This document shows positions 456 through 51,626 of a stretch of 64,000 nt of DNA, in pieces. Location of the stretch: assembly GCA_964607155.1 (NCBI GenBank), contig CAZSIF010000006.1:25048-89047 (forward strand). Reading direction: 5' to 3'. The translations under genes and the position numbers were made by a program. The notes under the pieces were generated by a model that saw nothing but the letters and a program-made list of their open reading frames with translations, was not told the DNA's origin and made no database searches. How positions within the stretch are numbered: the first letter of the stretch is position 1; the number at the start of each line of letters is the position of its first letter. Source of the stretch: an uncultured Oscillospiraceae bacterium (GTDB lineage Bacteria; Bacillota; Clostridia; Christensenellales; CAG-314).

Positions 456-504
456 GCACGTCGTTTGGGTTGACAAAATTCTTTTTACGGATATAATGAT
501 TGAT

Positions 505-963
505 ATGAAAGTTATTGCTACAAATAAAAAGGCACGTCACGATTATTTTGTCGTGGAAACGTTGGAGTGCGGAATAAATCTTGTCGGTTGTGAGGTTAAG
601 TCATTGCGCAAGGGCGAGGTTAATCTTGCCGATTCGTACTGTCGTGTGGATGGTGGAGATTTGACGCTTATTGGGTGCCATATCAAAAATTACGATAAGG
701 GCAGCTATTCTAACGTGGAAAGTCGTCGTGACCGTCGTTTGCTGGCGCACAAGCGTGAGATTATGCGTTTGCTTGGCAAGGTGAAGGAAAAAGGCTATTC
801 CATGGTGCCGCTTTCGATGTATTTTAAGGGTAGTTTGGTAAAGGTGGGGGTCGCACTGGTCAAGGGTAAACAAAACTACGACAAAAAAGAAGCAATCAAG
901 GCAAACGATATCAAGCGGGAGCAACAGCGTGCCGTTTCCGACTACAAGGCGCGCTCGCTATGA
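505..963 (+). CDS. smpB: SsrA-binding protein SmpB
   Basis: MKVIATNKKARHDYFVVETLECGINLVGCEVKSLR... is the canonical SmpB N-terminus. I chose the ATG at 505 within ORF 418..963; 496 is also possible. Confidence 0.9.
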   Translation: MKVIATNKKARHDYFVVETLECGINLVGCEVKSLRKGEVNLADSYCRVDGGDLTLIGCHIKNYDKGSYSNVESRRDRRLLAHKREIMRLLGKVKEKGYSMVPLSMYFKGSLVKVGVALVKGKQNYDKKEAIKANDIKREQQRAVSDYKARSL

Positions 964-1857: not shown

Positions 1858-3246
1858 ATGCAATTACGGGTTTACAATACGTTAACGAGAAAAAAAGAGG
1901 ATTTTGTTCCGCTAAAAGCCAATCAAGTTGGCATATATTCGTGCGGTCCAACCGTGTACAAATATGCGCACATAGGTAATCTTAGAGCGTATGTTTTTAT
2001 GGACGAGCTGCGCCGAGTGTTGGAATACGATGGCTACAAGGTTAAATCGGTAATGAATATAACCGACGTGGGGCACCTTGTTTCCGATGCCGATGACGGT
2101 GAAGATAAAATGCAAAAATCCGCCAATGAAACGGGCAAAACGCCGTTGGAAATTGCAGCATTTTATACCGACCAATTTATGAAGGATATCGACGCCCTGC
2201 ATATAAAGCGCCCCACAATTTGCCCGAAGGCAACGGATAACATTCCGGAAATGATCGAAATCGTGCAGGCGCTATTGGAAAAGGGGTACGCTTACGAAAC
2301 AGAGGACGGCATATACTATTCGGTGGAAAAATTTCCCGAGTATGGTCAGCTGTCCGGCATCAATCTTGAGGATCAGCGTCACGGTGCGCGCGTTGAAGTT
2401 AATAGCTTCAAGCGGCACCCAATCGATTTTGCTTTGTGGAAGCAGGCTGCGCCCAACCATTTGCAGCAGTGGGCAAGTCCGTGGGGACAGGGCTTCCCCG
2501 GATGGCACATCGAGTGCACGGCAATGTCCAAAAAATATCTTGGCGAACGCTTTGATATACACACCGGCGGCGTGGATCACATTCCCATCCATCACGAAAA
2601 CGAAATTGCACAGGCGGAGGCGTGGCTGGGGCACAAGGCTGTCAATTATTGGATGCATAGTGAGTTTATGCTTATTGATGGCGGCAAAATGAGCAAGTCG
2701 TTAGGAAACACATATACCGTAAACGACCTTGTTGCTAAGGGCTACGATCCTGTTGTGTTCCGCTATTTTTGCCTTAACGTGCAATATCGTCAAAAAATCA
2801 ACTTTACTTGGGATGGCTTAGAGGCGGCAAAAGTGGCGTACAATAAGCTGTGCGGATTGCTTGTGGCACACAAAAACGGCACGGAAAAAATCGACCAAGC
2901 CGTGCTTGACGACTTTGAACGTCGCTTTGACGAGGCTGTTAACGACGACCTTAACGTACCGCTTGCAATAGGCGTGCTTTGGACAATGCTCAAGCTGCCT
3001 CGCTCTGCAGACGTGTACAAGCTTGCACTAAAATTCGATAAGATTTTTGCGTTGGATTTTGACAAGGTAAAGGAGCAAAAACAGCAAATAGAGGTGCCTG
3101 CAGAGGTTACCGCGCTTGCAGAACAACGCCTTGCCGCACGCAAACAAAAGAATTGGGCGGAAAGCGACCGTTTGCGCGATGAACTTGCCGCTATGGGTTA
3201 CGCCGTAAAGGATACCGCAAGCGGATACGAAATTACACTTAAATAG
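1858..3246 (+). CDS. cysS: Cysteine--tRNA ligase
   Basis: A class I HIGH-type motif (YAHIGNLR), KMSKSLGN, and a typical CysS N-terminus (YNTLTRKKEDF..GIYSCGPTVY). A GGAG-type RBS lies upstream. Confidence 0.95.
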   Translation: MQLRVYNTLTRKKEDFVPLKANQVGIYSCGPTVYKYAHIGNLRAYVFMDELRRVLEYDGYKVKSVMNITDVGHLVSDADDGEDKMQKSANETGKTPLEIAAFYTDQFMKDIDALHIKRPTICPKATDNIPEMIEIVQALLEKGYAYETEDGIYYSVEKFPEYGQLSGINLEDQRHGARVEVNSFKRHPIDFALWKQAAPNHLQQWASPWGQGFPGWHIECTAMSKKYLGERFDIHTGGVDHIPIHHENEIAQAEAWLGHKAVNYWMHSEFMLIDGGKMSKSLGNTYTVNDLVAKGYDPVVFRYFCLNVQYRQKINFTWDGLEAAKVAYNKLCGLLVAHKNGTEKIDQAVLDDFERRFDEAVNDDLNVPLAIGVLWTMLKLPRSADVYKLALKFDKIFALDFDKVKEQKQQIEVPAEVTALAEQRLAARKQKNWAESDRLRDELAAMGYAVKDTASGYEITLK

Positions 3247-3253
3247 TTTGCAC

Positions 3254-3292
3254 GGGAGAACGTTTTTTTTGAGAACGCTCTCCCTTTTTTTT
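3254..3292 (+). terminator. Intrinsic terminator of cysS
   Basis: GGGAGAACGTT / AACGCTCTCCC stem with one mismatch, followed by T8. Confidence 0.7.
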
Positions 3293-3399
3293 GTGGGCGT
3301 TTGTTTGAACAAGTCGGTTTGGTGGTGTGTGGTGGATAAAATTTGCAATAAATTGCATTTTGTGCTGTAACTCGGCATAAGCTTTGTCGGAGATGTTTT

Positions 3400-17357: not shown

Positions 17358-17386
17358 TTGACTTTTTGTCAGGGGGGGGGTATAAT
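17358..17386 (+). promoter_or_regulatory. Consensus sigma-A promoter with a G9 homopolymer filling the 3' end of the spacer
   Basis: TTGACT (17358-17363), a 17-nt spacer TTTTGTCAGGGGGGGGG (G9 at 17372-17380), then TATAAT (17381-17386). It lies 38 nt upstream of the ATG of the TIR-LRR gene, whose RBS is AGAGAGG. Confidence 0.6.
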
Positions 17387-17424: not shown

Positions 17425-20400
17425 ATGGAACGATACGTCTGCAAAGTGTGCGGCGAACAGCTCGAACAAAAGATAGGCGACTTTTACGTCTGCAAATACT
17501 GTGGCTCACGTTGGAAGGTGGAAAAGGAAGTAACTCGTCTGCCCGTGTTGGATAACGCTTGGCAAGCCTTGCGCAACGGAGATTTCGACGTTGCGGAAGA
17601 GCTGTTTGAGGATGTCATCAACACGGATAACGCCAATCACGAAGCCTACTGGGGCAGGGCATTAGCCGCTGCAAGCATAATTTATGTAAACGACCTCAAC
17701 GAAAATAAAAAAGTACCCACTTGTAATAATATTTCGGAACAGGTGTTTGCCGATGGCACGTTTGTCAAAAAGGCAATCGAGCTTGCCCCTGCCGAGATAG
17801 CAGATAGCTACAAGCAACAAGCCGAGTACATAGATAAGGTTCGTATCGAGTGGTTAAACAAAGCCAGTAAAGAGCCTGCTTACGACGTGTTTATTAGCTA
17901 CAAGGATAGCGACAAGGAACACGGCATCGAACGCACTCAGGATAGTTATGACGCACAAGAACTGTACACCGAGCTTGTTCGCCGTGGATATAACGTGTTT
18001 TATAGCCGCGTTAGCTTGCGAGATAAGCTTTCCGAGCAGTACGAGCCGTACATATATAACGCCATCAAAACCGCAAAGGTAATGATAGTGCTTGCGGAAA
18101 AGCCTGAGTATATAACCGCAACGTGGGTAAAAAACGAGTGGTCACGCTTTCGTAATAGAATAGAGTGCGGTGAAAAGGACTCACGCAGCCTTGTGTTTGT
18201 TTACAAAAACCTTGACTTGTCGGATATACCTGCCGCTTTGCGTTCACGCCAGTGCTTGAACATGGCGGAAATGACATTTTTGCCTTCGCTAATATCTCAC
18301 ATCGAAAAGGTCATCGAAAGCACACGCAAAAACCAAGGTGTGGAAAAGATTGCAATAACAGGCGGCAAGATTGCCAAAAAGTCTACGGAGATATCTCAAA
18401 ACCAAATAACGGTTAGAGAGATAGGCAGCACGGTTGCACAAACGTCCCTTAACGATGCGCAAACGCTAAGCCTTGTTATGTCATATTTGGAAACAAATGA
18501 CTTTACTCATGCACAAAAATGTTTGGACGGCTTGTTGTTATCGGATTCGGAAAACGGTGAGTTTTTGCTTGCAAAACTGTTGCTTGAAAAACGCTGTTCT
18601 ACTATAAAAGCATTAATGACGGAGCTGTCAAATTTTGATAAAAGCGACTTTTCATTCATTGAAAGTATTATTAGTCGCTTGCCCAAAAAGGAAGCGAAAA
18701 AATTGCTTGCCGCAATGTATGAGCGCGCAAATGAAGTAAACGATATACTTGCGGCTCGCATATATGAAGTGATTTTGCCTTTTGCGTGCACAAATCGCGA
18801 TAAATTTATTCTTAACGCGGTGGACAATTGTATCGAAAATGGCAAGTTAAAAAGCTTCAAGCAGTTGCTTTTAACGCTGGATAAAAACGATACGGATAAG
18901 TATATTGAGTTGAATTTGCGCTTTGTTGAGCATAACAAGCCAAAGGACGATGAATATGCTGCCTGTATTGAGTGTTTACAAGCAGCTTTGGATGTGGACG
19001 AGGGTAATATTGTTGCTCTTGATGCGCTTTTGGAATTTGGCATTTGCAAAAATGATAAGTCGTCGGAGGAATTGTACGCTTTATTTGAAAGATTGTTGTC
19101 CTATTCCTCAGATGTTAACAAGGTAGTTGCAGAGTGGCTGCCTAAATTGCAAGCTTTGTATAATGACAATAATTGTGCGACTTGTATACTATGCTTTAGG
19201 CAAATGCTTAAATACTACCAAGCGGATCTATCAAATTTAGACGAAGCGATTTTGAATTTCGCAGATTTGTTATTGTCGGAATACAATTTCGCGGACGCCA
19301 ATGTTTTATATGACATCGTATTGGCTCATTCCACGCAATCACCGAGGGCATATTTGGGCATTGCGTTATCTAAAATTGGCGCGCCCGACATAAACAAATT
19401 GGGAATTAATTGTAGCAAGATAACCGACCTGCCGGAGTTCAGTAAGTACTTGTCGCTTTTGGATACTAAACAACGCAAGCAAATTTTGGCAAATATCCAA
19501 CGTCAACAAACAGATTTATCTCAACGAACCATTGCTGACGAGCAGTGTGCGTCGGAAAGGTATTCCGACTATGTGCATGCACGCAAAAATAGTTTTTTTG
19601 CTGCAAGAAAAGGTATAATAATTCGCAGCATAATATTTTCTGTAATTTGGCTTGTATTTTGCGGTGCAATAAACCTTTTAAGTAACCGCGAACTTTGGAC
19701 TTGGTGGCTGATACTTATTGCAGTCATCGTTGGCTTATTGTTTGCTTTTATTATTTCATATCGCACAGCACGTCGAATTGTACTATTTCCGTGGTTGTTA
19801 GGAGATGTTGCTATCGTATATGCTTTTAGGGGTATTTCGCCATCTGATTTGAGAGCCATAGTGTATGGTGCGTTGGGAGTGTATTTCTTTTTTACATTCA
19901 TTGGTATCTGTATGCCTACTGATGCTGATAGGATATTTGGAACTCGAAAAAGAATCCATTTGACGGAAGAAATAGCAAATAGATATATTGACCAAGATGG
20001 CCTTATGGAAGTTAAGTGGAGTGCTATCTCGAAACTTGACATTGATGGCAACGTAAAAGAAATCTGTAATGATTTATTTGAAAACTGCTGTGATTTACGC
20101 AAGGTATATTTTTGTGGAACTGCCGATAATTGGAACAAGATAAAGTTCAAATCCGGCAAGTCAAATCCGTTGCGTTGGGGCGCAGCTTTGTACGTTAAAG
20201 GTAAACGAGTTACTAACCTCAAACTGTCAGATGTGTCAGATTATGCATTTTACGGTTGTGGCTCGCTTACCGATGTTTGTTTGACTGAAGCTGTTAAGCA
20301 TATTGGTAAGGAAAGCTTTTACGGTTGTCGCTCGCTTGAAAATATTTCTATTGATTGCTCGTCGTTAACTATCGGAGAAGATGCGTTTGCATATTGCGAA

Positions 20401-30277: not shown

Positions 30278-32035
30278 ATGACAGGAAAAATCGTAAAGGT
30301 CAGCGGACCGCTTATCGTTGCGGAAAATCTTGCCGACGTGGAAATGTATGACGTTGTAAAGGTTTCGGATAAAAAGCTTATCGGTGAAGTCATCGAGCTA
30401 CGCAATGACAAGGCAAGCATACAAGTTTACGAGGAAACGGGCGGCTTAAAGGTGGGCGACGAGGTTGTATCGACGGGCGCGCCGCTTTCGGTGGAGCTCG
30501 GTCCGGGGCTTATCGAAGGCATATTTGACGGCATACAGCGTCCGTTGGACGTTTTGATGCAACAATCCGGCTCGCGTATTGGCAGGGGTATAGAGGTGTT
30601 TTCACTCAACCGTCAGCGCAAATGGCGTTTTAACCCCGTTGCCAAGGTGGGAGACGAAGTTGTTCCTGGCGACGTGTTGGGCACCGTGCAGGAAACGAGC
30701 ATCGTTTTACACAAAATAATGGTACCGCACGGCGTTAGCGGCAGGCTCACTTTTGTTGCGGATAGCGGTGATTACACAATTACGGAGCCAATTGCAAAGG
30801 TGGGCGACACAACGCTTACAATGATGCAAAAGTGGCCGGTGCGTAAGGGTAGACCGTACAAGCAAAAACTTTCGCCGGATTTGCCAATGGTAACAGGTCA
30901 GCGTGTTATAGATACGCTGTTCCCCATTGCAAAAGGCGGCGTGGCTGCCGTGCCGGGACCGTTTGGAAGTGGCAAAACGGTGGTGCAGCATCAGCTTGCA
31001 AAGTGGGCGGATGCGGATATTATCGTGTACGTTGGCTGCGGTGAACGCGGTAATGAAATGACGGACGTTTTGCGTGAGTTTCCCGAGTTAAAGGATCCCA
31101 AAACGGGCGAGCCTCTTATGAAGCGTACCGTGCTTATCGCCAACACGAGCGATATGCCAGTTGCCGCGCGTGAGGCAAGTATATATACTGGCATAACTAT
31201 TGCGGAATATTTCCGCGATATGGGCTACACTGTTGCAATCATGGCGGATAGCACTTCGCGTTGGGCGGAGGCTCTGCGTGAAATGAGCGGTCGCTTGGAG
31301 GAAATGCCGGGCGAAGAGGGCTACCCTGCCTATCTATCCAGCCGTCTGGCGGAGTTCTACGAGCGTGCAGGCATCGTCAAGGTGCTTGGTAGCAACGATA
31401 CCGTTGGCGCAATATCGGCAATCGGCGCGGTTTCGCCCCCGGGCGGCGATCTTTCGGAACCTGTTTCGCAAGCTACGCTTAGAATTGTCAAGGTGTTTTG
31501 GGGACTTTCCGCAAGTCTTGCGTACAAGCGGCACTTCCCTGCAATCGATTGGCTTACCAGCTACTCGTTGTATGACGACAAACTTGAGGATTGGTATGCG
31601 GATAACGTTGCGGAGGACTTTAATGCTCTCAAACAGGAGTTGCGCTTTGTTTTGCAGGAAGAAAATCAGCTAAACGAGATTGTTCGCCTTGTGGGTATGG
31701 ACGCACTCGGCGCGCGCGACCGCTTGACTATGGAAACGGCAAAATCCATCCGCGAGGACTATTTGCACCAAAATGCTTTCCACGAGGTGGATACATATAC
31801 ATCGCTAAACAAGCAGTACAAGATGATGAAGCTGATACTTAGCTTTTACCATCTTGCAACGGATGCATTGGAGCACGACGTTGAGCTAAACGACCTGCTG
31901 AGCTTACCCGTTAGGGAACAAATCGGCAGGGCAAAGTATGTTGAAGAATCGTCAATCGAAAGACTGGACGAAATTCAACGCAATATCAAAAGGGAAATTA
32001 ACGCTCTCGTAAATAAAGGAGACGCAAATGCTTAA
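30278..32035 (+). CDS. ntpA: V/A-type ATPase catalytic subunit A
   Basis: Walker [10 protein letters not shown], the non-homologous insertion region typical of A subunits, and 585 aa. Confidence 0.95.
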
Positions 32036-33407
32036 GGAATACAAAACCATCCGCGAGGTTGTGGGACCGCTAATGCTTGTGGATAGAGTCGAAGGCGTAA
32101 GCTATAATGAGCTTGTGGAAATCACGCAGGAAAACGGTGAGGTTCGCAAGGGTAAAGTGCTGGAAGTTAATGGCGACAAGGCACTTGTTCAGCTGTTCGA
32201 AGGCACGCAGGGACTTAAAATTGCCACTTCTAAGGCGAGATTTTTGGGCAGAAGCCTTGAACTTGCCGTATCGGAAGATATGCTTGGCAGAGTTTTTAAC
32301 GGTATGGGCGAGCCTATCGACGGCGGTGCGCCTATAATTGCCGATATGCGTATGGATATTAACGGTCAGCCGATAAACCCGTATGCGCGTGATTATCCCA
32401 ATGAGTTTATTCAAACCGGTATTTCCGCCATCGACGGACTTAACACACTGGTAAGGGGGCAAAAGCTACCTGTATTTTCAGCAAGCGGTTTGCCTCACGC
32501 ACAGTTGGCGGCACAAATCGCTCGTCAGGCACGCGTGCTTGGCGATGACGAAAGGTTTGCCGTTGTGTTCGGCGCAATGGGTATCACCTACGAGGAAGCG
32601 GACTTTTTTATCAAGGACTTCAATAAAACGGGTGCAATCGAGCGTACTGTGATGTTTATCAACCTTGCAAACGATCCGGCAATCGAGCGTATCAGCACGC
32701 CCCGTATGGCACTTACCGCCGCAGAGTATCTCGCCTTTGAAAAGGGCATGCAGGTGCTTGTAATTTTGACGGATATCACCAACTATGCAGAGGCTTTGCG
32801 TGAAACGTCCGCTGCCCGTAAGGAAGTGCCCGGTCGTCGTGGCTACCCCGGATATATGTACACCGACCTTGCTTCGATGTACGAGCGTGCCGGACGCATT
32901 CACGGTTGTAGCGGTTCGATAACGCAAATTCCCATTTTGTCCATGCCGGAGGACGACAAAACGCATCCCATTCCGGACCTTACGGGCTATATCACAGAAG
33001 GGCAAATTATTTTGTCGCGTGATTTGTATAAACGTGGCTACAATCCGCCAATCGACGTTCTGCCAAGCCTATCCCGTTTGAAGGATAAGGGCATAGGCAA
33101 GGGTAAGACTCGCGAGGACCATGCCAGTACAATGAACCAGCTGTTTTCCGCCTACGCGCAGGGTAAGGAGGCAAAGGAGCTTTCTGCAATACTTGGCGAG
33201 GCGGCACTTTCAGATGTAGATAAGCTGTATGCACGCTTTGCGGTGGAATTTGAAAAACAATACATTGCACAGGGCTTTACGGAAAACCGCTCAATCGAGC
33301 AAACTCTCGATCTTGGCTGGAAGTTGTTGGGTATTTTGCCGAGAAGCGAATTGAAACGTATCTCCGACGAAATGCTGGATAAATACTACAAACCGTACCA
33401 GTTTTAG
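32028..33407 (+). CDS. ntpB: V/A-type ATPase subunit B
   Basis: A 459-aa protein starting [16 protein letters not shown], typical of V-ATPase B. It overlaps the end of ntpA. Confidence 0.95.
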
Positions 33408-33708: not shown

Positions 33709-34332
33709 ATGGCAATAATGAACGTTAATCCAACTCGAATGGAAATGAAGCGGCTGCAAGCGCGACTAAAAACGGCAACGCGCGGACACAAGTTGTTAAA
33801 GGATAAAACGGACGAAATGATCCGTCGCTTTATCACGCTTGCACAGGAAAATAAACGTCTCCGTGCGGAAACGGAGCGTGAGTTATCCGATGCGCTTGTC
33901 AGTTTTACGCTGGCTAAGGCGGCAACCGACGGACGTATGGTGGACGAGGCAATAATGATGCCCTCGCGCACGGTGAGTTTAACCTGCTCCAAGCGCAAGG
34001 TGATGGGTATCGACGTGCCGGCAATTGATATCGACGATACGCAAGACTCGCTGTATCCATATGGTTTTTTGGCGCAAAGCGGTAGTTTGGATGAAGCTGT
34101 TAGGGGACTTAATGCTGTGCTGTACAAGCTAATACGACTTGCAGAAACGGAAAAAACCTGCAATATGCTCGCCGACGAAATTGAAAAAAATAAGCGTCGC
34201 GTTAACGCACTTGAAAATATCATGATACCGCAGCTGACGGAAACCATTCGCTATATCAAAATGAAGTTGGACGAAAGCGAGCGTTCCGCTACGGTGCGCT
34301 TGATGAAGGTCAAAGATATGCTAAACAATTAA
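33709..34332 (+). CDS. ntpD: V/A-type ATPase subunit D
   Basis: NVNPTRMEMKRLQARLKTATRGHKLLKDK is the canonical subunit D N-terminus. The gene is separated from ntpB by an unusual 300-nt spacer. Confidence 0.9.
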   Translation: MAIMNVNPTRMEMKRLQARLKTATRGHKLLKDKTDEMIRRFITLAQENKRLRAETERELSDALVSFTLAKAATDGRMVDEAIMMPSRTVSLTCSKRKVMGIDVPAIDIDDTQDSLYPYGFLAQSGSLDEAVRGLNAVLYKLIRLAETEKTCNMLADEIEKNKRRVNALENIMIPQLTETIRYIKMKLDESERSATVRLMKVKDMLNN

Positions 34333-34339
34333 TTGCAAG

Positions 34340-34365
34340 GAGCCCTGTATTGGGGCTCTTTTTTT
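34340..34365 (+). terminator. Intrinsic terminator of the V-ATPase operon
   Basis: GAGCCC / GGGCTC stem followed by T7. Confidence 0.75.
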
Positions 34366-34460
34366 GCGATGGCGTTTTTTTTTTGATTCTTTATAAGGCT
34401 AAATAAAAAGATACTGGTGGCAAATAAATATGCTGATAGAATAGGAGCAACAATCTTGAA

Positions 34461-34501
34461 AGTTAAAACACAAAGCGCAGGCTAATTTTAGCCTGCGCTT
34501 T
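34461..34501 (-). terminator. Distal intrinsic terminator of the orphan minus-strand unit
   Basis: AAAGCGCAGGC / GCCTGCGCTTT 11-bp perfect stem, followed on the minus strand by GTGTTTT. Confidence 0.6.
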
Positions 34502-34600
34502 GTGTGTGTTGTTTATGTCTAATTCTCGCTTGAAAGGAAAACTAAACAAATCCCTCCGTAAAAGTTTTTTGTTGATGTGGTGTTTTCGATTATTTGTCGT

Positions 34601-34643
34601 ATAAATAAAAACGCTATCCGATAGCCAAAAGCGTCGGATAGCG
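34601..34643 (-). terminator. Proximal intrinsic terminator of the orphan minus-strand unit
   Basis: CGCTATCCG / CGGATAGCG 9-bp perfect stem, followed on the minus strand by TTTTTATTTAT. Confidence 0.6.
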
Positions 34644-34735
34644 CAAAAGGAACGCCTAGTGGCGTTGTGTGCTAATGTTCCGACTTTGTTCCGCCAAGGT
34701 CTGTCGGCTACCAAGGCGTCTGACGAGTATGCGCG

Positions 34736-34775
34736 GTACATCTCCAAGCGTATTTGAGCTTTGGGATTTACAATG
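34736..34775 (-). repeat. Copy E of the recurrent hairpin motif (inside the candidate ncRNA)
   Basis: Minus strand reads TTGTAAATCCCAAAGCTCAAATACGCTTGGAGATGTAC. Compare copy B, GATGTGAATCCCAAAAGTTGGACGCTTTTGGAGGTGCAT. Confidence 0.6.
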
Positions 34776-34811
34776 CTACTCGTATTTGATGGCATATAAA
34801 AATATATTAGT

Positions 34812-34840
34812 ATTATAAAGCCTTGCTTGTGTCGTGTCAA
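34812..34840 (-). promoter_or_regulatory. Perfect consensus sigma-A promoter (P1) of the orphan unit
   Basis: Minus strand reads TTGACA-CGACACAAGCAAGGCTT(17)-TATAAT. Confidence 0.55.
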
Positions 34841-34891
34841 GAATATTTAGTTTATTTTATCGGAAAATAAACAAATATTTAGGATAATAGC

Positions 34892-34922
34892 ATTATACCC
34901 CCCCCCCCCCGAATATTGTCAA
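34892..34922 (-). promoter_or_regulatory. Second promoter (P2) with a G13 homopolymer in the spacer
   Basis: Minus strand reads TTGACA-ATATTC-G13-TATAAT, a 19-nt spacer. The G run abuts the -10 hexamer exactly as at 17372-17380. Confidence 0.45.
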
Positions 34923-35056
34923 GCTCTTGAAGTTATCTTGTAAAAAAAAGTACAAAAAGTACGGAATAGTGAGTTTGTCTTATTCGGCTCGTTTTGTTTG
35001 CGGGGCAGCTGCCGTCAATGAACGTCATAAAAAGGCGGCAGGATGGAAATTTGACT

Positions 35057-35092
35057 GAAAAAAAAATGACGGTGGCAAATTGCCATCGTCAT
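35057..35092 (-). terminator. Intrinsic terminator of glyQS
   Basis: A 13-bp stem ATGACGATGGCAA / TTGCCACCGTCAT with one mismatch, followed on the minus strand by T9. Confidence 0.7.
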
Positions 35093-35109
35093 TTATATGG
35101 TTTTTTGTA

Positions 35110-36498
35110 TTAGTAGATGTAAATGCGTTTTTTGAGATAATCTTTCAGTTCGGCGACGGGAATGCGCTCCTGCTGCATGGAATCTCTTTCGCGCACGGTA
35201 ACACAGCCGTCGACCTCGGTGTCGAAGTCGATGGTGATGCAAAACGGCGTGCCGATTTCGTCTTGACGGCGATAACGTTTACCGATGCTACCTGCCTCGT
35301 CGTAATCGCAAGTAAACTCCTTTATCAGGTCGTTGTATATATCTGTTGCCTTGTCGCTAAGCTTTTTGGATAGCGGCAACACGCACGCTTTGACGGGGGC
35401 AAGCTCGGGGTGGAGGTGCAACACTACGCGTGTGTCGTTTTCACCAACAACCTCTTCGTCGTAGGCATTGGATAAAAATGCCAAAAAGGCTCTGTCTACG
35501 CCAAGGCTTGGCTCAATAACGTACGGAATGTACTTTTCGTTGGTAACGGGATCGAGGTAATCCAGTGTTTGACCGCATGCTTCGCTGTGGCGCGTAAGGT
35601 CGTAATCGGTGCGGTCGGCAATGCCCCAAAGCTCACCCCAACCGAATGGGAATTTAACCTCAAAGTCGGTGGTGGCTTTGCTGTAAAAGCACAGCTCGTC
35701 TTTATCATGGTCGCGCAGACGCAAGTTTTCTTCCTTCATGCCAAGGTCAAGCAGCCACTGTTTGCAAAAGTTCTTCCAGTAATCAAACCACTCGAGGTCT
35801 GTGCCGGGCTTGCAGAAGAATTCCAGCTCCATCTGTTCAAACTCGCGCTGTCTAAAAATAAAGTTGCCTGGGGTTATCTCGTTGCGGAATGCCTTGCCGA
35901 TTTGTCCGATTCCGAAAGGTACTTTGCGCCTTGTGGTACGGCATACGTTTTTGAAGTTTACAAAAATTCCTTGTGCTGTTTCCGGACGGAGATATACGGT
36001 GGAGGTAGAGTTTTCCGTTACGCCGATAAAGGTTTTGAACATCAGGTTGAACTTGCGAATGGAGGTAAAATCGCATTTTCCGCACACGGGGCAATGTATT
36101 TGATGCTCCACAATGTAGGCGGAAATCTCGTCATCGCTCATTGCTGCAACGGTATTGGGCAGATTATGCTTTGATTGATATTCCTCAATCAAGTTGTCTG
36201 CACGATAGCGAGTTTTGCAACCTTTACAGTCGATTAGCGGATCGGAAAAGCCTGCAAGGTGTCCTGTTGCCTCCCATGTTTTGGGATTCATTATGATTGC
36301 TGCGTCAATACCGACGTTAAGAGGATTTTCCTTGATAAACTTGCGGTACCAAACGTTTTTGATGTTGTTTTTCAGTTCCACGCCAAGAGGACCGTAGTCC
36401 CACGAGTTGGATAGACCGCCGTAAATCTCACTGCCGGAGTACACAAAGCCCCTGCCCTTTGCAAGATTTACAAGCTTGTCCATTGTAAGTTGAGCCAT
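35110..36498 (-). CDS. glyQS: Glycine--tRNA ligase (homodimeric class II type)
   Basis: N-terminus [36 protein letters not shown] and a full-length 462-aa GlyRS pattern. GGAG RBS. Confidence 0.95.
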
Positions 36499-36530
36499 AG
36501 TAACTAATCTCCTAAAAATAATCTAAAAGT

Positions 36531-36559
36531 ATTCTAAGTTTTTATCTGAAATTTGTCAA
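36531..36559 (-). promoter_or_regulatory. Sigma-A type promoter for glyQS
   Basis: Minus strand reads TTGACA-17 nt-TAGAAT, about 30 nt upstream of the glyQS start. I could not recognise a T-box leader. Confidence 0.5.
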
Positions 36560-37219
36560 GCGTGTGTGCCGTCTTGATACGCTGTTGCGGCGTATTTTTT
36601 TTTTGTTGGAATCGCTTTTGTGGCGGTATTGGCATTTGTTTGCGATGTTTTTTATAATTGAGCAAAATTCCCGTGACTAAATAAATGTGTTTTTAGAAAA
36701 CTATATCAAATACAAGTGTTTTTAAAGAACCATACTAAATAAACGTCCTTTGGGGGAACTATACTATATATATCCATACCGTTAGCAATGCATTCGAGCG
36801 ATTGGAAGTCAGCCCCGTTATGACCACTTTGATACCTATCCATAGATTATTTATTCGATTTTAGCGGAGAACAACATGATTGGAAGTTGTATTTTGTTTT
36901 TACGTTGTCAAATATAGATTTCCGGCGGGTGTTGTGTGCAGGGGCGGACTATGTAATAGGGCTATACGAGATGTTTATTGAGTGTTGTGCGGTGACGTTT
37001 TTCATGGGGTGCGTGGCGATAGCAATAAAAAAGTTATTTCTTGCGTTTTTTCAGCCCGATTTTAGCATAATATGATAGTATAACTATAAAATATAGGCAT
37101 GCTTGGTTGATTTGTGACGCAAAAGCTTTTTTGGAATGCGGCTTGTTGTAGGGGATTGCTTACTATGGAGCGTCGCACACGAGCATTGTGCACTATTGTA
37201 TCCCCATCGGGAGGTAAAA

Positions 37220-50557: not shown

Positions 50558-51424
50558 TCATGGCTCTGTACCCCCCCCCGTTTGACGTCTAAATTGTCCC
50601 GGAGAAACGCCGTATCTGTTTTTGAAGTTTGCGCTGAATTGCGAAAGCTTTGCGTAGCCGACAAGTTGGCAAACTTCAATAACCTTTATGTCCGTACTTC
50701 TTAGCAGGTTGGCGGCATATTGCAGTTTGTAGCTTACCAAATATTGATGAGGTGTAACGCCAAAGTGCTGTTTGAACAGTCGCAGCAGCTGCATACGGCT
50801 ATAGTCCAAGCTGGCGCAAAGGTCGTCCACGTTGTACGACAAAAAATCTTTTTTATCCATCAAGCGTATCAGTCGTGCCTGAAATGTGGATTTTTGTTGA
50901 GATAACTCGTGCAAAAAATGTCCGTAAAAGCGTTGCAGCAACAGCAAAACGGCGGAGCACACCAAATCGTTGTATTTTTTGTATTGCGAGCTTGCCAGCA
51001 GGTTTAGTTGGTGAATTATTTCGTCAATTTCGTCCACGATATATGGCATCAAAGCGAGGCTTTTTTGTTTCGCTTGCACAAGCTGCTGCCAAAAATCAGG
51101 CGATATGGCATCTGCAAGTTGCTTTAAGGTTGCCTCTCTCACAGCAAGGTTAATGTAGCGTATCTGTTGACTGCGTTTTTTCAGGTAGTGTTCGTCGTCT
51201 GTGGTGGAGTAAAAAACGATATTTTTTTCGTAAACCTGTTCCGTGCCGTTGGATACGTTGCCCAATTTGCCGTCGGTAATCACGGTGAACTCCCAATAAT
51301 CGACATGTCCGTGGGGGATGGGGAAATCGAAGGTGTTAACGTGATAGGTGTACGAAATTTGCTCCATGTCGCTCATCAGTACATACGCATTACTGTTGTT
51401 AAGTGAAAAAGAATAGCGTTCCAT
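50558..51424 (-). CDS. AraC family transcriptional regulator
   Basis: C-terminal double HTH (LCASLDYSRMQLLRLFKQHFGVTPHQYL...IEVCQLVGYAKLSQFSANFKNRYGVSPGQF). I chose the ATG at 51424 after AAGGAG. It is divergent from the GH130 gene. Confidence 0.8.
   Translation of the reverse strand: MERYSFSLNNSNAYVLMSDMEQISYTYHVNTFDFPIPHGHVDYWEFTVITDGKLGNVSNGTEQVYEKNIVFYSTTDDEHYLKKRSQQIRYINLAVREATLKQLADAISPDFWQQLVQAKQKSLALMPYIVDEIDEIIHQLNLLASSQYKKYNDLVCSAVLLLLQRFYGHFLHELSQQKSTFQARLIRLMDKKDFLSYNVDDLCASLDYSRMQLLRLFKQHFGVTPHQYLVSYKLQYAANLLRSTDIKVIEVCQLVGYAKLSQFSANFKNRYGVSPGQFRRQTGGGTEP
50571..50579 (-). repeat. G9 (C9 on the plus strand) homopolymer inside the last codons of the araC-family gene
   Basis: It encodes the GGG of ...RRQTGGGTEP*. 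A length change alters only the C-terminal tail: +1 gives an approximately 25-aa extension and -1 gives a 6-aa alternative tail. Confidence 0.9.
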
Positions 51425-51626
51425 CTGTTGTTGCTCCTTATCCCGACGGCGTTGCGACAGTCGAGTTTTAGTAGGCATATTGTACGATAACAAAATCAAA
51501 ATTGCAACAATTTGACGAAAAAAGTTACAAAAAAAGATTTTTGTGTTGTATTTGGGTATAGAAAACCGAATGCCTCGTTTGATATAATTTTTTTTAGAAA
51601 GTTATTCGAGTGAGGTTGATTTCCAT

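Follow-up and report, generated by a model that had tools for sequence, protein, structure and literature searches.

An orphan unit with a conserved 3' module

The DNA analysed here, referred to as the window, is a stretch of 64 kb with a GC content of 46% from an uncultured Oscillospiraceae bacterium, and the spacer of 777 nt between its convergent genes ntpD and glyQS holds an orphan unit on the minus strand. The best reading of this unit, put forward tentatively, is that it is a lineage-restricted non-coding unit, in which a leader ends at a probably conditional intrinsic terminator (T1) and a 3' module, closed by a second terminator (T2), is the functional RNA part. Only the last ~110 bases recur in a sister species, which argues for a lineage-restricted regulatory RNA and not for a widespread family; it is plausible that the unit is such a regulatory RNA or an attenuator-gated non-coding RNA (ncRNA). 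The first-pass annotation of this region proved largely correct in what it observed, with its motifs found at the positions given or a few bases away, and partly supported in what it concluded. The positions of all features are given in Table 1.

The sister species is represented by the Logan contigs L174 and L175 from the runs SRR33036532 and SRR33013276, which were found as cluster members of a 97%-identical NtpD, and its ntpD is 97% identical at the amino-acid level and 88% at the nucleotide level. The block of 110 nt at 34465–34574 matches positions 1986–2096 of L174, where its place is downstream of ntpD and its relative orientation is the same. Within this block, the core of 66 nt, the sequence of which includes ACGGAGGGATTTGTTTAGTTTTCCTTTCAAGCGAGAATTAG, is identical at 62 of 66 positions with a perfect run of 44 nt, whereas the 4-fold degenerate sites of ntpD and ntpB (145 sites) are 68% identical between the two species (binomial P = 4e-7). 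No alignment with the sister species is possible over the remainder of the spacer. The 3' module, consisting of the GGAGGG region and T2, had been treated as secondary but is, unexpectedly, the only part of the unit under detectable purifying selection. No other part is conserved in the sister species, and the module is therefore likely to be the functional part at the RNA level.

The hairpin of T2, which is the second strong terminator that the first-pass annotation of this region had pointed out, is kept in the sister species, where two of its pairs have changed in a fully compensatory manner; in the hairpin at 34548–34516, one pair changes from U-A to U-G. Since the core lies beyond T2 for plus-strand transcripts, it is best explained by a minus-strand RNA ending at T2, or by a DNA site. 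As an RNA, the 3' module might, for example, base-pair through its GGAGGG or its CU-rich loop, or it might bind to a protein or to the ribosome. In the read-through transcript, UCCUUUU (34651–34645) is predicted to pair with the conserved GGAGGGA (34557–34551). The Rfam search of the sister-species region gave no credible match either.

In the proposed mechanism, two tandem sigma-A-type promoters, P1 and P2, would drive the stand-alone unit on the minus strand and would feed a lineage-specific leader of ~200 nt that ends at T1. Termination at T1 would yield an RNA of ~200 nt, and read-through would add the 3' module of ~110 nt, which consists of an exposed GGAGGG resembling a Shine-Dalgarno (SD) sequence, the hairpin with a CU-rich apex, and T2. 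T2 would shield the convergent V-ATPase operon from antisense transcription. The description of the region as a self-contained minus-strand unit is upheld by its sequence signals, namely two perfect promoters, two terminators in the right order, and insulation by the glyQS terminator, and the unit is probably transcribed.

Terminator T1 and the competing antiterminator fold

The terminator that had been placed at 34601–34643 was recovered with a 10-bp stem of −19.4 kcal/mol and a U-rich tail; a simple terminator scan missed it because its loop is longer than 8 nt. The transcript from P2 to T1 has two isoenergetic folds, a terminator fold at −62.1 kcal/mol, in which the hairpins H1, H2 and H3 and T1 are all formed, and an antiterminator fold at −62.3 kcal/mol. 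The antiterminator fold contains two helices. In helix 1, GUCGGA..UAGC (34684–34671) pairs with the 5' arm of T1, GCUA-UCCGAC (34642–34633), and in helix 2, AGACGC.UUGGUAGCCGA (34721–34704, where UUGGUAGCCGA itself occupies 34714–34704) pairs with the loop, the 3' arm and the first U's of T1 (34628–34609). Helix 1 is already the minimum-free-energy fold at a length of 175 nt, ahead of the synthesis of the 3' arm of T1.

The competition with T1 was compared with that in dinucleotide shuffles of the upstream 162 nt, where the terminator was kept fixed, and 4 of 400 shuffles reach the native value. The native energy difference is +0.2 kcal/mol, compared with −7.8 ± 3.5 kcal/mol in the shuffles. 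That upstream segments can sequester both arms of T1 suggests that T1 is probably conditional and of the attenuator type. The segment GUCGG (34684–34680) can alternatively pair with CCGAC (34707–34703) in the loop of H2 to form an H-type pseudoknot, which would free T1 to form, as in the logic of an attenuator.

The unit has the parts of an attenuating leader, namely a promoter, the leader itself, and an intrinsic terminator for which a predicted antiterminator is the mutually exclusive alternative. A conserved aptamer or sensor domain with covariation was not found, as the leader has no homologs in the set searched, and in place of a protein gene downstream of T1 there is just an open reading frame (ORF) of 28 codons with a TTG start and poor SD spacing. 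The earlier suggestion of a riboswitch-like leader gains some support from the antiterminator test of T1 and none from the comparison with relatives.

The leader and its hairpins

The three hairpins described for the leader (ACGAGTA/TACTCGT, CCGAC/GTCGG and AACGCC-ACTA-GGCGTT) are all found at their places. The motif inside the ACGAGTA stem had been called recurrent; its inner hairpin has no second copy within the window, and this part of the description was not confirmed. The 5' domain of 159 nt without terminators (34806–34648) has a fold z-score of −1.99, and its reverse complement has −2.67. The z-score of the whole unit is −7.5, which is mostly contributed by T1 and T2. The leader does hold hairpins as the first-pass annotation had stated, but their richness is modest by these z-scores, and with a fold that is modest and not specific to the strand, the promoter-proximal ~200 nt are not sustained as a novel structured RNA.

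The comparison set consisted of 176 related loci (1.15 Mb), together with plasmids, phages and viral contigs, and its relatives include those with 94% amino-acid identity in GlyRS and 96–97% in NtpD. No homolog of the leader (34600–34806) was found in this set by blastn, nhmmer and pattern scans, where the pattern scans of the viral contigs gave only chance matches inside unrelated coding sequence. A lack of conservation in related genomes had been named as a ground for refutation, and it applies to the leader, which has no counterpart in the 176 loci; conservation was found for the 3' 110 nt, in one sister species.

The octamer GUACCGCG of H1, ~95 nt from T1, resembles the T-box sequence. A T-box leader was rejected, as RF00230 gave no match even at E ≤ 10 and the unit lies downstream of glyQS. 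6S RNA was also rejected, since local hairpins in succession, and not a rod, make up the predicted folds, and there is no Rfam match.

Tandem promoters and G-tracts

The perfect minus-strand promoter TTGACA-17-TATAAT that had been reported is P2, which matches the consensus at 12 of 12 positions (34840–34812). Transcription from P2 is predicted to start near 34805, and P2 looks constitutive. The second promoter, P1, lies 80 nt upstream. Perfect sites of the form TTGACA-N16-19-TATAAT number 4 in the window against 0.05 expected; two of the four are P1 and P2, in tandem within the spacer between ntpD and glyQS, and the other two drive real genes, smpB and a gene of 96 aa. The AT-rich imperfect palindrome that lies between the −10 box of P1 and the −35 box of P2 is a candidate operator. 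As a separate observation, smpB is seemingly leaderless: its TTGACA-16-TATAAT ends at 497 and its ATG is at 506 (470–510, plus strand), 8 nt after the −10 box, and no SD sequence is present.

A run of 13 G's (G13, 34898–34910) lies between TTGACA and TATAAT of P1, which is the layout of a homopolymer-tract promoter, and directly abuts TATAAT. A similar arrangement is seen on the plus strand at 17358–17386, where TTGACT is followed by 8 nt, G9 and TATAAT with a spacer of 17 nt; this promoter drives a TIR/TPR/BspA-LRR protein of 1071 aa at 17425. G runs of at least 8 occur three times in the window, and two of the three sit exactly between a −35 and a −10 box, abutting TATAAT; the third (G9, 50571–50579) falls within the final codons of the AraC-like ORF at 50558–51499 (minus strand). 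In the loci of the relatives (1.14 Mb), there is a single such run, outside any promoter, and therefore the G-tracts in promoters are non-random and specific to this genome.

In phase-variable promoters, the length of the tract sets the spacing between the −35 and −10 boxes, and the activity is optimal at 17 nt (PMC7864442). The present G13 gives P1 a spacer of 19 nt, and G11 would give the optimal 17 nt. P1 is probably a slipped-strand phase-variable promoter, a candidate that would be sub-optimal in its current state. As in the promoters of porA of N. meningitidis and of tp0126 and tpr of T. pallidum, the G-tract between the hexamers sets the spacer in P1 and in the promoter at 17358. However, those cases concern pathogens and surface-antigen genes, whereas P1 lies upstream of a non-coding unit in a metagenome-assembled genome (MAG) of gut Clostridia and, unlike them, has a second, tract-free perfect promoter, P2, 80 nt downstream. 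With these G-tract promoters, a gut commensal Firmicute may undergo slipped-strand phase variation. Phase variation in gut commensal Firmicutes is commonly described through invertible promoters and not through homopolymer tracts.

An inverton was considered and rejected for this locus, as the only long-range inverted repeat is poly-A/T with 70% complementarity, and a flip would put no gene under the promoters.

Coding potential and known RNA families

The open frame of 125 codons that spans P2, T1 and T2 had been judged to encode no convincing protein, and the present results agree with that judgement. Its codon-usage score is −0.006, compared with 0.305 ± 0.09 bits per codon for the genes of the window; it has no Pfam match, and a word-based search of an index of 5.8 billion proteins found no homolog. 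Its open length, which is longer than expected, is reached by 26 of 2000 shuffles. Among 1.8 billion proteins, HMMER gave one marginal match (E = 1e-4) to P0121, a repeat protein of 410 aa, in which a stretch of 30 residues that overlaps the −10 box and H1 aligns four times with the repeat unit of P0121. This match was judged to be a repeat-inflated chance match because nothing else links the two.

The GGAGGG at 34557–34552 and the TTG ORF of 28 codons at 34549–34463 that had been noted as a possible micro-ORF are both present, although its translation into a protein is not supported. The distance from SD to the start codon is 2–3 nt, compared with 6–10 nt in the real genes of the window. In the sister species, every substitution past the identical stretch is non-synonymous, and an indel of 2 nt shifts the frame; therefore, the C-terminal 60% of the peptide differs. 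Neither strand of the block holds another frame that is kept as an ORF with a start codon, and none of the other small ORFs on the two strands has an SD sequence. With regard to a small protein or a type I toxin, the micro-ORF lacks suitable SD spacing, conservation at the amino-acid level and a hydrophobic transmembrane stretch. Type I toxin-antitoxin systems and small ORFs on the plus strand were rejected, since neither an SD sequence nor a hydrophobic peptide is present.

The unit had not been matched to tmRNA, SRP, RNase P, 6S, T-box or any common riboswitch, and the covariance-model check with Rfam, which has now been run, bears this out with no credible match to these or to other families, raiA and ROOL among them. 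Rfam 15 at the gathering threshold gave 0 matches in the whole window, and at E ≤ 10 in the region 34300–35150, it gave only terminator-driven matches, the best of which was GibS on the opposite strand with 35.5 bits against a threshold of 115. ARAGORN found no tRNA or tmRNA. At the level of sequence signals, the unit has what a stand-alone small RNA (sRNA) gene shows: its own promoter, its own terminator and no coding capacity. A replication origin (oriC) or a dif site was rejected, as there is neither a DnaA-box cluster nor a skew change, and an insertion with target duplication was rejected because a direct repeat of 21 nt such as that at 34405/35060 is expected by chance.

Variation of the locus among relatives

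The junction of ntpD and glyQS is unique to this genome and is absent from 80 GlyRS loci (GTDB species, 68–94% amino-acid identity) and 80 NtpD metagenome loci: none of the 80 GlyRS loci has a V-ATPase operon downstream, and none of the 80 NtpD loci has glyQS. The spacer sequence was not found in these loci by blastn and nhmmer, and blastn of plasmids and phages with the spacer gave no match. Relatives with NtpD of 89% identity have other genes downstream, and the loci of C-terminal GlyRS fragments with 85–87% identity are without the spacer sequence. A GlyRS with 94% identity is from a MAG labelled 'uncultured Oscillospiraceae'.

Among the relatives with NtpD identity of at least 96%, the 3' flank of ntpD is entirely different from one to the next, with four arrangements (L174 1820–1985; L161 1440–1493; L184 1368–1648; window 34366–34464), and judging by these arrangements, it is a rearrangement hot spot. 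In L161, the block was not found in the 84 nt available after ntpD. The region 1820–1985 of L174 is made up of small GC hairpins in a row, every one with a T-run behind it (TTTTTTAACGGC...TGCC).

Beyond the block, L174 carries a gene on the minus strand (2242–3297), called gene X here, that encodes at least 351 aa of a Gly/Thr/Asn-rich, repeat-rich and beta-helix-like protein without a Pfam match. Gene X has no homolog in the window or the other loci, and it occupies the place of the orphan leader and glyQS. The possibility that the spacer is a remnant of gene X was rejected, since the two have no similarity.

Weighing of the alternative readings

Several results weigh against the reading as a conditional leader that gates a functional 3' module. 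P1, P2, the leader and T1 are absent from the sister species, where ~145 nt that hold no consensus promoter separate the block from the 3' end of the unrelated gene of 351+ aa upstream. The sister block does without this leader, and therefore the module does not need it. In L184, the ntpD of which is 96% identical, the 280 nt of available sequence downstream of ntpD hold no block. The fold signal of the leader is modest and shared by both strands, the antiterminator test, with p of ~0.01, falls short of overwhelming, and the pseudoknot of CCGAC and GUCGG, with 5 bp, is at chance level when taken alone (8 pattern matches in the window). Moreover, the conservation spans only two species, which is too few for a statistical test of covariation.

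Two other readings, both unlikely, account for parts of these results. In the first, the unit is a plain trans-acting sRNA of ~200 nt from P2 to T1, where T1 is constitutive and the interval from T1 to T2 is an unrelated conserved relic of a 3' UTR or terminator of the ntpD-side flank. A perfect promoter and the strong T1 fit such an sRNA, and the GC content of 34600–34799 is 46.5%, compared with 31–35% in the flanking spacer. The CU-rich UUCCUUUUG, single-stranded and directly 5' of T1, is similar to the seeds with which Firmicute sRNAs target SD sequences. However, the 200-nt part has no homolog in any of the sets searched, its fold z-score is just −2, and the upstream region is a stronger competitor of T1 than 99% of the shuffles, which is unexpected for a constitutive terminator.

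In the second, which is improbable as well, the promoters, the leader and the long frame are debris at the rearrangement hot spot, that is, remnants of a disrupted gene or operon, such as a phase-variable surface-protein gene, with no current function, and just T2 and its neighbourhood are maintained. The four arrangements of the ntpD flank and the unique junction with glyQS are consistent with this reading, as are the excess length of the 125-codon frame and its marginal match to a repeat protein (both given above). No G-tract promoter other than P1 occurs in the window except that of a TIR/LRR repeat protein, and the sister block follows the repeat-rich gene X. However, neutral decay would probably not have spared a pair of hexamer-perfect promoters and an intact, strong T1; the neutral divergence from the sister species at 4-fold sites is already ~32%. 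The codon usage of the frame is non-coding, and no similarity was found between the spacer and gene X, between the spacer and the LRR proteins of the window, or between P0121 and gene X.

It is very unlikely that the unit is a small-protein gene, in which GGAGGG is a true ribosome-binding site, an ORF of 28–31 codons (MFSFPFKREL...) is translated, and the leader with T1 is a cis-acting attenuator or translation through T2 modulates termination. The SD, the start codon and the first 11 codons recur in the sister species with 100% identity, the ORF traverses the whole T2 hairpin in both species, and the order of promoter, leader, terminator, SD and ORF is the classical layout of an attenuator. 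Against this stand the spacing of 2–3 nt to a start codon that is TTG, the non-synonymous nature of all substitutions past codon 10, and a peptide without transmembrane or toxin-like character; in addition, the conservation is one of nucleotides and begins 17 nt ahead of the SD.

A further reading, in which the unit generates antisense transcripts through two gates or is a new regulatory RNA under attenuator control, has hardly any probability: very strong tandem promoters, one of them phase-variable, would fire towards the 3' end of the V-ATPase operon, a signal-sensing leader would open T1, and either the module would act in trans, or ribosome loading on the ORF that spans T2 would open T2, so that antisense transcription into ntpD-ntpB would tune the V-ATPase. 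If it were true, it would represent a new class of sensor coupled to a non-coding output in gut Clostridia.

Comparison with known systems

The closest parallel to the reading as a lineage-restricted unit with a conditional T1 is found in EutX of Enterococcus faecalis and Rli55 of Listeria monocytogenes, which are riboswitch-gated ncRNAs (PMC5821096). Like them, the orphan unit has a stand-alone promoter, a structured leader ending in a terminator, and no downstream protein gene, and such units can lie in any orientation relative to their neighbours. Their short form stops at the terminator of the leader, and the functional module belongs to the long form that arises by read-through, as is proposed here. 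However, the orphan unit is not a member of this class, since both the AdoCbl aptamer and the ANTAR site are missing. Rfam gave no match for a cobalamin riboswitch in the window, and the loops of the 3' module are UUCA and AAAAUU/AACAUU, in contrast to the AxxGxx dual-hexaloop ANTAR site of EutX and Rli55. The orphan leader also differs from theirs in that not even the sister species shares it. The combination of a leader, a conditional terminator and a conserved non-coding module is so far documented for few RNAs, such as EutX and Rli55.

Attenuating leaders with pseudoknot aptamers, of the preQ1-II and SAM-II style, resemble the orphan leader in that a consensus promoter is followed by hairpins and in the isoenergetic terminator and antiterminator folds, where GUCGG can pair either with the upstream loop CCGAC or with UCCGAC in the 5' arm of T1. 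In contrast to these leaders, the orphan leader has no conserved aptamer, no downstream protein gene and no Rfam family at E ≤ 10.

DapZ, CpxQ and SroC are Hfq-dependent enterobacterial sRNAs that are embedded in 3' UTRs or share a terminator. The 3' module resembles this type in that a short, seed-like stretch of high conservation lies directly upstream of an intrinsic terminator in unalignable surroundings, and the block of the sister species is part of the 3' UTR of a protein gene. However, the module in the window is fed by dedicated promoters and not by an mRNA.

If the unit is transcribed, it would be a lineage-restricted regulatory RNA in an uncultured lineage of gut Clostridia (Oscillospiraceae). 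Its practical value is limited, and its distribution is two species so far.

Features of the locus and neighbouring genes

As had been stated in the first-pass annotation, the neighbours of the unit are the V-ATPase operon and glyQS; Pfam confirms the products of ntpB (32028–33407) and ntpD (33709–34332) on the plus strand as V-type ATPase subunits B and D, and that of glyQS (35110–36498, minus strand) as a class-II GlyRS. The predicted terminator of glyQS insulates the orphan unit from read-through of glyQS.

Table 1. Positions of the features in and around the orphan unit (coordinates of the window).
Feature	Position	Strand	Description
glyQS intrinsic terminator	35064–35094	minus	Palindromic; 14–15-bp stem, then T-run
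P1	34892–34922	minus	TTGACA-atattc+G13 (34910–34898)-TATAAT; 19-nt spacer; 80 nt upstream of P2
AT-rich imperfect palindrome	34842–34879		Between P1 −10 and P2 −35; arms 34847–34858 / 34864–34875, 92% complementary
P2	34812–34840	minus	TTGACA (34840–34835)-17-TATAAT (34817–34812); 12/12 consensus match
125-codon open frame	34463–34840	minus	Spans P2, T1 and T2; judged non-coding
H1	34723–34783	minus	Outer stem ACGAGUA/UACUCGU (34783–34777 / 34729–34723), inner CCAA-GC/GC-UUGG; stable in all predicted folds
H2	34679–34721	minus	CGCCUUGGU / ACCUUGGCG (34718–34692), loop CCGAC (34707–34703); switch segment GUCGGA (34684–34679)
H3	34651–34666	minus	AACGCC-ACUA-GGCGUU
CU-rich single-stranded segment	34644–34652	minus	UUCCUUUUG; anti-SD-like; directly 5' of T1
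T1 intrinsic terminator	34601–34644	minus	10–11-bp stem 34643–34634 / 34621–34612, 12-nt loop, U-rich tail UUUUUAUUUAU at 34611–34601
Conserved core of 3' module	34509–34574	minus	A-rich lead-in, GGAGGG (34557–34552), hairpin UGUUUAGUUUUCCU / AGCGAGAAUUAGACA (34548–34516), CU-rich apex
TTG micro-ORF, 28 codons	34463–34549	minus	GGAGGG 2–3 nt before TTG; probably not translated into a functional protein
T2 terminator	34468–34505		18-bp palindrome closing the unit; −31 kcal/mol; scores as terminator on both strands

Some further observations concern the surroundings of the unit. The motif GGTGGCAAAT at 34416 is found again in the glyQS terminator at 35071. The tmRNA gene was not found in the window. 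The own promoter of glyQS is a plain TTGACA-17-TAGAAT, ~60 nt before the start codon (36499–36560, minus strand). glyQS has no T-box leader, and Rfam gives no T-box in the window, which is unusual for a Firmicute glyQS. In the divergent intergenic region between glyQS and the Bax-inhibitor gene (36676–36770), there are three tandem AT-rich repeats of 29 nt (ACTAAATAAATGTGTTTTTAGAAAACTATA...), which are possibly iterated protein-binding sites.

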